The position numbers and the translations under genes were made by a program. 64,000 nt of DNA from an uncultured virus (IMG/VR IMGVR_UViG_3300033066_002331). Its lineage: Duplodnaviria > Heunggongvirae > Uroviricota > Caudoviricetes. The notes under the pieces are model-generated. The model did not search any database. It saw only the letters and a list, made by a program, of their open reading frames with translations, and was not told where the DNA came from. Where the stretch lies: the IMG/VR virus record IMGVR_UViG_3300033066_002331; one strand, written 5' to 3'. Below, one piece after another: positions 3,195-3,328 of the stretch; positions within the stretch are counted from its first letter, which is position 1; every line of letters starts with the position of its first letter.

Positions 3195-3328
3195 TTGATG
3201 GTAAGTCTTTAGGTGTAAAGACTGATGCTCTAACCGACTGAGCTACACAGACTTTTTAGCCTATGATGGGACTCGAACCCACGACCCTCAGTTGGAAAAT
3301 TTAGAAGTAACCAAAAGATAGCCATCAA
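3195..3328 (-). ncRNA. YrlA-like RNA (scaffold unit 5) with a circularly permuted tRNA domain
   Basis: ACTGA-GGGTC-GTGGG-TTCGAGT-CCCAT-CATAGGC-TAAAAA-GTCTGTG-TA-GCTC-AGTCGGTTA-GAGC-A-TCAGT (3292-3221) embedded in the scaffold. Confidence 0.85.

Follow-up and report, generated by a model that had tools for sequence, protein, structure and literature searches.

A circularly permuted tRNA-like domain in a phage RNA array, candidate partner of a Ro60-like/TerD protein

Introduction

Y RNAs and their protein partner Ro60 are known from animals, bacteria and a few phages. A 64,000-nucleotide stretch of DNA from an uncultured virus of the Caudoviricetes (IMG/VR record IMGVR_UViG_3300033066_002331), here called the window, raises the question of whether such a system also exists in another form. 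On its minus strand, a first-pass annotation had reported a circularly permuted tRNA domain, with the T arm placed before the D arm as in the YrlA type of Y RNA, inside the fifth unit of a repeated scaffold. Such a domain could belong to a permuted tRNA gene, a chance neighbourhood of decayed tRNA genes, a processing signal, a decoy or a Y-RNA-like ribonucleoprotein. Bacterial and phage Y RNAs, as described in the available excerpt of Chen et al. 2014 (PMC4201824), adjoin the Ro60 gene, number at least two per species and derive from polycistronic precursors, and one of them carries a tRNA-like module. The effector bound by the tRNA-like domain is given as still unknown in the available excerpt of another source (10.1101/312249).

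The tRNA-like domain of unit 5

Each element that the first-pass annotation had named can be found by direct reading of the minus strand. The elements are listed below; the evidence is direct reading throughout, joined by the Rfam YrlA alignment for the unit as a whole and by re-permutation with ARAGORN for the core.

3195..3328, minus strand: unit 5, a handle plus a circularly permuted tRNA-like domain
3221..3292, minus strand: tRNA-like core of unit 5
3292-3288, minus strand: anticodon-stem 3' strand, ACUGA
3287-3283, minus strand: variable loop, GGGUC
3282-3266, minus strand: T arm, GUGGG-UUCGAGU-CCCAU
3265-3259, minus strand: acceptor 3' strand, CAUAGGC
3258-3253, minus strand: linker, UAAAAA
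3252-3246, minus strand: acceptor 5' strand, GUCUGUG
3245-3244, minus strand: UA between the acceptor 5' strand and the D arm
3243-3227, minus strand: D arm, GCUC-AGUCGGUUA-GAGC
3226, minus strand: A after the D arm
3225-3221, minus strand: anticodon-stem 5' strand, UCAGU

The T arm is thus followed by a 7-bp acceptor stem closed by a loop and then by the D arm, all of it inside an anticodon-type stem. The domain contains U8, A14, G15/C48, G18 G19, A21, G53, U54 U55 C56, A58 and C61, which we take to be the positions of the tRNA tertiary core, or elbow. Its acceptor end is closed by the 6-nt loop UAAAAA and lacks a CCA, and the anticodon-type stem continues as the linkers AAUUUUCCA and CUUUAC, which lead to the handle, so that the scaffold occupies the place of an anticodon loop; both of these points had been part of the initial description and are borne out here.

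The Rfam YrlA model (RF02553), suggested earlier as a check, aligns over its full length (model positions 1-114 of 114) with 3192-3328 on the minus strand at 36.8 bits and E 5.1e-6. The check succeeded in extent and significance, but not in score, which is about half the Rfam gathering score of 69; at gathering thresholds Rfam gives no match anywhere in the window. The other five of the six matches to this model at E <= 10 have E values of at least 0.39, and weak YrlA matches are frequent, six of 14 control genomes giving one at E <= 0.001.

The proposed tRNA call on the re-permuted sequence was run here with ARAGORN. No canonical tRNA, with a normal-order cloverleaf and an anticodon loop, is called in the native window (0 tRNAs) or in the region 2900-3400 on the minus strand (0 tRNAs). 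Once the two halves of unit 5 are rejoined around a placeholder 7-nt loop, a 77-nt tRNA is reported in all five trials. The thermodynamic minimum free energy structure of unit 5 (-38.1 kcal/mol, z -2.7) includes the T and acceptor hairpins; the cloverleaf is not drawn, ACUGAG pairing instead with CUCAGU inside the D arm. Reading, YrlA alignment, re-permutation and the pairs kept in three other lineages (see below) together confirm, on sequence grounds, that unit 5 holds a complete predicted tRNA-like core in the YrlA topology, in which the T arm precedes the D arm.

The handle and the seven-unit array

Unit 5 belongs to an array, the parts of which are as follows.

2664..3648, minus strand: whole array of seven handle units (reading and motif parse)
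3648, 3569, 3496, 3419, 3328, 3127 and 2825, minus strand: starts of units 1 to 7
3302..3328, minus strand: 5' half of the unit-5 handle, comprising P1 UUGAUGG, CUAU, P2 CUUUUGGU and the conserved UACUUCUA
3195..3214, minus strand: 3' half of the unit-5 handle, comprising P2' ACCUAAAG, ACUUA and P1' CCAUCAA
2701-2664, minus strand: array end, a hairpin followed by a run of 8 U
2946..3053, minus strand: second tRNA-like element, in normal order, CGGCGAU..AUCGCUG-ACCA (direct reading)
3683..3710, minus strand: promoter-like site TTGATA-16-TATATT, lying about 35 nt ahead of unit 1

All units follow the order P1, CUAY, bulged P2, UACUUCUA, insert, P2', NNUUU, P1', and GGCUAY..UACUUCU is common to the seven units of the window; the opposite strand of the window has no such handle units. 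In unit 5, P1 pairs at 7/7 positions, inner P2 at 3/4 and outer P2 at 3/3, and in the YrlA alignment the 3' half of the handle falls on the model's 3' strand (ccaaAaAcUuGucGcc). In unit 7, read by eye, the 5' half is canonical, but P1 consists only of GG/CC.

The predicted handle is backed by strong covariation. In a set of 34 short units, picked for pairing and drawn from the window and 15 loci, 91.8% of cells pair and double changes are seen in 13 of the 15 pairs; the covariation score, 0.777, compares with 0.207 in shuffles and about 0.1 with slid partners. An unbiased control points the same way: of 87 candidate units, 41 reach 13 or more of 14 pairs, compared with 3.4-3.75 after shuffling or swapping. 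The term "scaffold unit 5" is therefore apt, one covarying handle being common to the seven units.

A blastn search of the array against GenBank phages gave no match. In DNA reads from four runs, contigs are identical to the window wherever the phage is covered, and so offer no natural variants for testing the pairing; extra read depth over the D and T arms was traced to unrelated tRNA genes. Among 19 listed sequencing runs, none is an RNA run with this sequence. The promoter-like site is the best of 11 consensus matches (10/12), with 8.1 matches expected from shuffles, and is only a hint of a promoter upstream of the array. The second tRNA-like element has a 39-nt insert at the anticodon-loop position and a T stem with two U-U mismatches; ARAGORN gives no call for it, and its D-arm motif was found in a pattern scan.

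The inserts carried by the handles are variable. Hairpins with a 7-nt loop of the form Y-U-NNN-R-N occur in nine of 41 short inserts, compared with 1.7 +/- 1.2 in 200 shuffles (maximum six). The loop CUUUUAA, that of tRNA-Lys, is seen three times, and the insert of window unit 6 places a CUUCAAA loop on a 5-bp stem. In relatives, AGG-CUGUUAA-CCU is kept, and units made of a T arm and a closed minihelix recur. The earlier suggestion that the elbow of unit 5 complements anticodon-loop mimics in neighbouring units agrees with this excess of loops across inserts, but fares less well in the window itself, where only one of the five short units tested follows the strict loop rule.

The upstream protein

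4508..6718, minus strand: gene for a 736-aa protein upstream of the array, with a helical Ro60-like body and a TerD-fold domain in the structural model

In the available excerpt of Chen et al. 2014 (PMC4201824), a YrlA RNA is expected no more than about 4 kb from a gene for Ro60 (TROVE). The gene nearest to unit 5 ends 1.2 kb upstream, and its 736-aa product has no Pfam TROVE match and a Ro60-like fold at modest scores. The protein has no Pfam match at E <= 0.01, TROVE (PF05731) included; TROVE is likewise absent, even at E <= 5, from 22 family members, and also from the 62 window ORFs scanned and from five of five related phage records, in a search whose controls recovered the TROVE proteins of Deinococcus and Bacteroides. 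The protein does match phrog_33734, and for part of it NCBIfam gives a match to NF041916 ("MXAN_6230/SCO0854 family RING domain-containing protein"), which scores 235 bits where the cut-off is 600; a genome scan for bacterial SCO0854/MXAN_6230 relatives gave phage-like MAG contigs. The family comprises at least 849 homologous clusters, all "hypothetical" or unnamed and without a Pfam domain. Its profile has one match among PDB sequences, an antibody light chain at E 1.5. Homologues in XacN1 and RcXuper are about 24% identical, and that of RcXuper is annotated within a tRNA cluster beside a nucleotidyl transferase. For the downstream 435-aa ORF, Pfam, PHROGs and NCBIfam gave nothing usable and a PDB sequence search gave no match.

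Residues ~516-680 of the model superpose on TerD (2qz7, Z 11.8; 2kxt, Z 11.6), and Foldseek against the PDB finds the TerD domain at probability 1.00; a C-terminal vWA domain with a MIDAS was looked for, and this region of the model has the TerD fold instead. Ro60 is absent from the Foldseek matches listed, which contain the TerD domain alone, and surfaced only with an aligner that does not lean on Foldseek. With that aligner, the Ro60 chains of Xenopus (1yvp: Z 9.8, rmsd 4.4, 321 aligned), Deinococcus (2nvo: Z 8.5, rmsd 5.3, 305 aligned) and Thermus phage phiLo (9l5y: Z 8.4, rmsd 6.1, 297 aligned) rank 3-5 of 48,161 chains, next after TerD, although Z values below about 13 are, by the aligner's own warning, common for helical repeats. 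Other HEAT matches to the full model reach at most Z 7.2 over about 95 residues. When the helical part is modelled alone, 9l5y (Z 6.2, rmsd 5.2, 254 aligned) is level with generic HEAT repeats, and 1yvp and 2nvo are absent from the best 50 matches. Outside the family, the top BFVD match is a phage TROVE-domain protein (probability 0.98-0.99, 408-423 columns); in the Protein Atlas, the best named cluster for residues 1-510 (0.89) is a "hypothetical protein" without a family. The model thus suggests, at modest scores, a Ro60-like helical body joined to a TerD domain, with no link to Ro60 at the level of sequence.

Recurrence in related loci

The units travel with this protein family. The 736-aa protein is 50-55% identical to the product of the gene that precedes arrays in L052 and L062, and in 60 related loci, which total 489 kb, the unit motif was counted 162 times on the strand of the gene and four times on the opposite strand. 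At least two units are present at 39 of these 60 loci, as against none of 60 on the opposite strand, and ten of the 60 have no unit. Units accompany the family down to 28% protein identity; two or more are present at eight of 19 loci with 26-37% identity, where the loop motif is UCCUUCUA, and nine of ten loci from the genome collection contain units as well. Arrays in relatives contain up to nine modules.

The full permuted domain is rare. A strict pattern finds it at one of the 60 loci, and four lineages in all have it, the window included. In the other three it again lies within handle units, with YrlA scores of 37.0 bits (L157), 43.6 bits (L184) and 39.6 bits (L185, identical to L186). Across the four-sequence alignment, all 14 tested pairs on well-aligned stems are kept and six are compensatory, with both sides changed. 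The acceptor stem, the columns of which are misaligned, was left out of this count; by eye it pairs at 7/7, 6/7, 7/7 (or 10/10) and 7/7 positions in the four sequences. In L184 and L185, ACCA directly follows the acceptor 3' strand. The L184 domain lies about 12 kb from the protein gene. No permuted domain was found in the downstream regions of L174, L175, L178 and L180, which are four of the eight loci of the metagenome scan, or in a strict pattern scan of all eight close metagenome loci. In some relatives the same two modules are circularly permuted the opposite way, and the existence of a two-module RNA in both permutations argues for selection on its shape and not on the position of its ends.

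A proposed ribonucleoprotein

The reading that we favour, and judge somewhat more probable than its rivals taken together, is that unit 5 is a Y-RNA-like tRNA mimic, one module of a new Ro-like/TerD ribonucleoprotein, with protein binding, expression and processing as predicted elements. The fold-defining sequence features, the covariation of handle and stems, the recurrence of the modules and their synteny with the protein family are the observed features behind it. In this scheme a conserved two-helix handle (P1, an internal loop with CUAY opposite ACUUA, and a bulged P2) would carry a tRNA-shaped domain, with a loop-closed acceptor end and an anticodon stem opening into the handle. A single RNA of about 1 kb, read from the same strand as the upstream gene, would contain all seven modules, with or without later processing. 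Each handle may then dock on the 736-aa product, a ring-like helical protein with a putative Ro60-related fold, in which the TerD domain would stand where Ro60 has its vWA domain. The variable insert of each module could present a different RNA shape to a second factor. That of unit 5 would be the tRNA elbow, which might recruit or occupy a tRNA-recognising protein; candidates include RNase P, the CCA-adding enzyme, a modification enzyme or an exoribonuclease, a place taken by PNPase in the Ro60-Y RNA complex of Deinococcus. Another candidate is an RNase R-like protein that the phage encodes at 52511-54451.

A broader and more doubtful idea is that large phages possess an undescribed class of ribonucleoprotein in which a TerD-bearing Ro60-like ring and a modular RNA showing parts of the tRNA body form a multivalent decoy or enzyme trap. 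The parts displayed might be the whole elbow in either permutation, T-arm minihelices and anticodon-loop look-alikes, and the particle would act during infection, for example against host tRNA-cutting defences.

Alternative explanations

It is also conceivable, if unlikely, that the RNA acts by itself, as an array of tRNA parts soaking up host tRNA-targeting nucleases or tRNA-binding enzymes, with the protein merely stabilising it or uninvolved. The excess of tRNA-type 7-nt loops among the short inserts, the threefold CUUUUAA, the CUUCAAA loop of unit 6, and the persistence in relatives of AGG-CUGUUAA-CCU and of the T-arm minihelix units all fit such a decoy. Yet the loop rule describes a minority of inserts, there is no known host defence target here, and strict conservation lies in the handle and not in the inserts, which points to a common binding partner. 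A processing signal, in which the tRNA-like domain serves as an RNase P or RNase Z site for cutting a long precursor and is possibly CCA-tailed, is distinctly unlikely. Here the 7-bp acceptor stem of unit 5 is relevant, since the available excerpt of Chen et al. 2014 (PMC4201824) links a stem of this length to the RNase P cleavage and CCA addition of Mycobacterium smegmatis YrlA; the ACCA of L184 and L185, and that ending the second tRNA-like element of the window, would also suit it. In unit 5, however, UAAAAA and not CCA follows the acceptor strand, and tRNA-like parts occur in just one or two of the seven units, so that most unit borders would stay uncut. Furthermore, the D arm and the anticodon-type stem are kept with compensatory changes, and a minihelix substrate of RNase P is not known to need either.

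Two explanations would return the domain to ordinary tRNA genes. A permuted or split tRNA gene, maturing into a working, aminoacylated tRNA, would account for the presence of all cloverleaf arms, for the acceptance of the re-permuted sequence by ARAGORN and for the resemblance of the arms to tRNA genes of the same metagenomes. (These look-alike genes have UUGUGGU between the arms and, by reading, a GUG (His) anticodon.) It is nonetheless very improbable: an anticodon loop is found on neither side, the linkers leading into the handle, nor is there a CCA; four lineages have the domain in this same handle setting; and the known cases of permuted-tRNA maturation are algal and depend on a splicing endonuclease. 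The remaining explanation, that the 3' half of a decayed tRNA gene happens to lie beside the 5' half of another, is disfavoured and seems scarcely credible. Such dimeric-tRNA false positives of YrlA searches are indeed the subject of a warning in the available excerpt of Chen et al. 2014 (PMC4201824), and true tandem tRNAs explain five of the nine YrlA-match loci inspected in relatives (L188-L191 and L194). In unit 5, by contrast, the acceptor strands are mutually complementary over 7 bp with a gap of just 6 nt between them, ACUGA and UCAGU at the edges pair so as to enclose the entire domain, neither a D arm upstream nor a T arm downstream is present, ARAGORN calls no tRNA in the window, and the arrangement recurs with compensatory changes.

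Comparison with known systems

With the Y-RNA-like ribonucleoprotein as the favoured reading, array and protein point to an undescribed phage version of the Ro60-Y RNA system. No description of a TerD-Ro60 link or of such arrays was found in the literature searched, subscription journals lying outside its reach. The locus adds a candidate partner protein family left blank by current annotation and a handle with its own consensus. If binding were confirmed, Ro-type RNA surveillance or hijacking would extend to many large environmental phages, and the arrays would provide a natural set of swapped-in RNA domains for asking what a tRNA mimic recruits.

The closest RNA counterpart is YrlA of Salmonella, Mycobacterium and some phages. 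Unit 5 shares with it the succession of T arm, loop-closed acceptor-like stem and D arm within an enclosing stem, the continuation of that stem into a bulged end-to-end helix, the retention of tRNA core nucleotides, and a position next to the presumed partner gene, as one of several related RNAs in series. It differs in that the handle has motifs of its own (CUAY, UACUUCUA and NNUUU-CC), that unit 5 is one of seven units apparently sharing one promoter and one terminator, that no TROVE or vWA match exists for the presumed partner gene, and that relatives of the array hold both modules in the opposite circular permutation. The ends of unit 5 pair and its handle covaries, but the handle motifs are not of the CGAA type; CGAA, described for canonical Y RNAs in the available excerpt of the phiLo study (PMC12135203), is absent from the unit handle.

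In the permuted tRNA genes of red algae the 3' half comes first and the 5' half second; these genes keep the anticodon loop and yield real tRNAs by way of a circular intermediate. The 3' half precedes the 5' half in unit 5 as well, but unlike these genes it has no anticodon loop.

The protein is best compared with Ro60/Rsr (TROVE plus vWA). It lacks a sequence-level match to these proteins, has a predicted TerD fold in place of vWA/MIDAS and is about 700 aa long; what the model appears to share with them is the helical-repeat body, for which the best structural matches are three Ro60 chains and a phage TROVE protein. In phage phiLo, according to the same excerpt (PMC12135203), Ro60 binds host PNPase as well as two adjacent Y-like RNAs. 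The array resembles phiLo Ro60 with Yrl1 and Yrl2 in having adjacent structured RNAs built on a handle of stem, internal loop and stem.

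The permuted tRNA domain of unit 5

Unit 5 (3328..3195, minus strand), the fifth of seven non-coding RNA units arrayed at 3648..2664 on the same strand, is an ordinary member of the array whose insert is a tRNA-like domain. Read directly, the 5' half of its handle, the scaffold common to the units, is UUGAUGG-CUAU-CUUUUGGU-UACUUCUA, and a linker AAUUUUCCA joins it to the core. The core follows as ACUGA-GGGUC-GUGGG UUCGAGU CCCAU-CAUAGGC-UAAAAA-GUCUGUG-UA-GCUC AGUCGGUUA GAGC-A-UCAGU, and CUUUAC-ACCUAAAG-ACUUA-CCAUCAA lies downstream. From ACUGA to UCAGU this is a whole tRNA core in permuted order, with the two strands of the anticodon-type stem at its outer ends and an acceptor stem of 7 bp, including two G-U pairs, that is closed by a 6-nt loop and lacks CCA. 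The first-pass annotation had described the domain element by element, and its description matches the minus-strand reading exactly.

ARAGORN calls no tRNA or tmRNA gene in the whole 64-kb window, and no Rfam family matches there at gathering thresholds. Under permissive thresholds over 2500-4100, the YrlA model (RF02553) matches 3192-3328 (minus strand) at 36.8 bits (E 5.1e-6), about half the Rfam cut-off; the alignment covers all 114 model positions, both halves of the end-to-end stems included, and places the handle on those stems. The remaining five matches have E values of at least 0.39, leaving YrlA as the sole convincing one. Because the score is about half the cut-off and weak YrlA matches turn up often (with E <= 0.001 in 6 of 14 control genomes), the match is insufficient alone, and unit 5 is not assigned to Rfam YrlA. 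When a script joined the two halves of the domain around a placeholder 7-nt loop, ARAGORN called the re-permuted sequence a 77-nt tRNA in five of five trials; the native order gave no calls. The first-pass annotation had proposed a YrlA search and tRNAscan-SE on the re-permuted sequence; the YrlA and ARAGORN results agree with the permuted domain it described.

The minimum free energy of unit 5 is -38.1 kcal/mol (z -2.7), and none of 200 shuffles was equally stable. The corresponding structure contains the T and acceptor hairpins, with ACUGAG paired to CUCAGU inside the D arm, an alternative pairing that three related sequences (L157, L184 and L185) do not offer. Energy folding alone is the less telling evidence for unit 5.

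The D-arm and T-arm segments (window 3221-3291) have matches, in normal tRNA order, on metagenome contigs of other organisms; the 8-20 letters between the two arms there include UUGUGGU on the RNA strand. By our reading this would be a GUG (His) anticodon, so the arms of the domain appear most like those of tRNA-His genes.

The array and its handle

The minus strand has seven copies of the motif GCUA-N-(G/C)UUACUUCU, from 3642 to 2807; elsewhere in the window (G/C)TTACTTCT is found at four sites, all on the plus strand and without the GGCUA context. Units are laid out as P1 - CUAY - P2 - UACUUCUA - variable insert - P2' - NNUUU/A - P1', where P1 has 7 bp and ends in GG/CC, and P2 has about 8 bp with a bulge of 1-2 nt in its 5' strand. 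Six of the seven window units parse cleanly; unit 7, read by eye, has a canonical 5' half and P2, and only the GG/CC of P1.

Features of the array region
4508-6718, minus strand: 736-aa ORF, same strand as the array, which lies downstream of it
3710-3683, minus strand: promoter-like site TTGATA-16-TATATT ahead of unit 1, a weak hint
3081-3097, minus strand: unit 6 hairpin UUUUA-CUUCAAA-UAAAA with a tRNA-type 7-nt loop
2946-3053, minus strand: another tRNA-like element, with its arms in normal order, located after unit 6 and before unit 7
2701-2664, minus strand: hairpin and run of eight U, after unit 7

When 34 short units, taken from the window and from 15 related loci, are aligned, 91.8% of handle cells are paired (61.9% in shuffles), 13 of 15 pairs are changed on both sides, and the covariation score is 0.777, against 0.207 when shuffled and about 0.1 when partners are slid. 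As these units were preselected for pairing, candidate 5' halves are the fair control: a near-perfect, correctly placed partner (13 or more of 14 pairs, with an insert of up to 40 nt) follows 41 of 87, against 3.4-3.75 expected with strands shuffled or downstream sequences swapped. On this comparative sequence evidence, the handle is a real structure.

Further tRNA-like parts occur in the window. The element between units 6 and 7 reads CGGCGAU-UA-GCUC..GAGC, then an anticodon-type stem CUCUU/GAGAG, then ..AUCGCUG-ACCA, so encoding CCA. ARAGORN makes no call for this element, whose T stem contains two U-U mismatches and whose anticodon loop is replaced by a 39-nt insert. Among 41 short inserts from the window and related units, 9 form a hairpin with a 7-nt loop of tRNA type (1.7 expected), the loop CUUUUAA occurring three times. 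Taken as an anticodon, UCA, the middle triplet of the unit 6 loop, would read UGA.

Recurrence in both permutations

A YrlA search of 52 related virus records was followed by inspection of nine loci with matches. The same design, a handle unit with T arm, closed acceptor and D arm, was found in three further lineages.

Permuted units in related loci
L157: 37.0 bits (YrlA); protein 29% identical
L184, 1493-1659, minus strand: 43.6 bits (YrlA); about 12 kb from the protein gene
L185, 1457-1608, plus strand: 39.6 bits (YrlA); about 800 nt upstream of the protein gene

L186 is identical to L185. Five of the nine inspected loci were rejected as ordinary tandem tRNA genes, a false-positive class that Chen et al. 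flag for YrlA (PMC4201824). The full permuted domain is uncommon, since a strict pattern found it in only 1 of 60 loci. Across the window, L157, L184 and L185, the anticodon-type, T and D stems are paired in 56 of 56 cells, and 6 of 14 pairs are changed on both sides, among them 3 of the 5 pairs of the long-range closing stem. The count excludes the acceptor stems, whose alignment columns are misaligned; by eye they differ entirely in sequence and are still paired.

In L184 and L185, ACCA (discriminator plus CCA) directly follows the acceptor 3' strand, despite a loop of 17-27 nt closing the stem, and may point to cleavage exposing a tRNA-like 3' end.

In many closer relatives the last array element is instead a normal-order tRNA-like RNA in which the handle, its P1 closed by a loop, replaces the anticodon loop (L123, L118, L120, L121, L125-L128, L130, L131, L136, L137, L156 and L192). 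The clearest case, L123 (~6150-6290), has the anticodon stem AAAGU/ACUUU, followed by P2' - AAUUU - CC-loop-GG - CUAU - P2 - UACUACUA. Judged from its sequence, this element is the opposite circular permutation of unit 5: it combines the same pair of modules but has its chain break at the opposite end. There are also units in relatives with no more than a T arm and a closed minihelix.

The neighbouring protein

The 736-aa protein has no Pfam family and one PHROG match, to a PHROG without known function. At E <= 1e-5 its family comprises at least 849 clusters, which are hypothetical or unnamed throughout and lack Pfam domains. Residues 321-708 match NCBIfam NF041916 ('MXAN_6230/SCO0854 family RING domain-containing protein') with a score of 235 bits, under the cut-off of 600, so bacterial relatives exist, with an added RING-named N-terminus; no paper on that family was found in the literature searched.

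A pattern scan of viral contigs (113 stretches in all) gave two loci with several units among the 80 loci listed, both with the array directly after a homologue of the protein (50-55% identity). The protein led to 60 loci, 52 of them viral and 8 metagenomic, with 489 kb in all. These contain 162 copies of the unit motif on the strand of the protein gene and 4 on the opposite strand; at least two units are present in 39 of 60, against 0 of 60 for the opposite strand, and no unit was found in 10. Units are carried by 9 of 10 genome-collection loci. Among distant relatives (26-37% identity), 8 of 19 loci have at least two units, with the loop motif UCCUUCUA and an array often upstream of the protein gene.

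A small gene (product starting MAT..KTTDEKV..) is conserved after the array in seven relatives (L118, L123, L125, L127, L115, L156 and L122), about 0.8-1.5 kb downstream of the protein gene, and is followed by a short conserved element with AAGUGGUGGA and a metallophosphatase-like gene; in the window this place is taken by a 435-aa ORF that is unrelated and belongs to no known family. Distant homologues (~24% identity) in Rhodobacter phage RcXuper (L183) and Xanthomonas phage XacN1 (L182) lie in or near tRNA clusters and adjoin annotated nucleotidyl transferases.

The AlphaFold model (pLDDT 75, pTM 0.72) combines a helical body with a beta-rich domain that covers residues 516-680 or so. Against the PDB, the matches listed by Foldseek are TerD proteins only (probability 1.00). 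An exhaustive structure aligner also places TerD on top (Z 11.8 and 11.6). The next three are Ro60 structures: 1yvp, the Xenopus Ro, at Z 9.8 (321 residues aligned, rmsd 4.4); 2nvo, the Deinococcus Rsr, at Z 8.5 (305 residues, rmsd 5.3); and 9l5y, the Ro60 of Thermus phage phiLo, at Z 8.4 (297 residues, rmsd 6.1). Generic HEAT proteins rank behind them (Z <= 7.2, ~95 residues), and the aligner itself warns that helical repeats often give Z values of this size. In a search of predicted viral structures, the first out-of-family match is a 'TROVE domain-containing protein' of an uncultured phage (probability 0.98 with the whole model, 0.99 with the helical part). Modelled alone, the helical part reaches only Z 6.2 to 9l5y, a tie with generic repeats, and 1yvp and 2nvo are absent from its match list; no sequence method used links the family to TROVE. 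On our reading it is probable that the protein is a Ro60-like ring in which TerD replaces the vWA domain.

Possible function and relation to Ro60-Y RNA systems

Alongside the tRNA-type loops of the short inserts, one might read the array as a decoy made of tRNA parts, which we consider unlikely. That the tRNA-like domain is a processing signal for RNase P/Z, a reading to set beside the ACCA of L184 and L185, is more doubtful again. Unit 5 is very improbably a true permuted tRNA gene, and an artefact of dimeric tRNA is the most improbable reading of all.

By analogy with the Ro60-Y RNA particle, we favour one in which each handle would dock on the Ro-like/TerD protein, and infer binding, expression and processing alike; unit 5 would then present a tRNA elbow to a tRNA-recognising factor. 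The window encodes SmpB (43033-43530), an Rv2179c-like 3'-5' exoribonuclease (51489-52034), an RNase R-like RNB protein (52511-54451) and an RNA-ligase/ATP-grasp protein (54950-56449), all on the minus strand, so that RNA-turnover partners are at hand, as context and not as evidence. Elsewhere, a RecD2-type helicase gene (47725-51084, plus strand) carries an in-frame insertion of Hint and LAGLIDADG homing-endonuclease domains that resembles an intein; other LAGLIDADG and GIY-YIG genes stand free at 37948-38736, 60520-60927 and 22831-23373.

The literature searched yielded no description of a partner family with TerD and without TROVE and vWA signatures, of this distinct handle consensus, of arrays of up to nine units as in these relatives, or of both circular permutations of a handle-tRNA pair. 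Among known systems, the Ro60-Y RNA particle comes closest. More than 250 bacteria and phages are reported to encode Y RNAs next to Ro60, with at least two in each species, often derived from a single precursor, and one of these RNAs carries a tRNA-like domain (PMC4201824), described as a close tRNA mimic (10.1101/312249). TROVE proteins are reported in a few jumbo phages (PMC7824862), and the Ro60 of phage phiLo is reported to bind two adjacent Y-like RNAs and host PNPase (PMC12135203). A tRNA mimic of the YrlA type, which unit 5 resembles, is a known kind of RNA.
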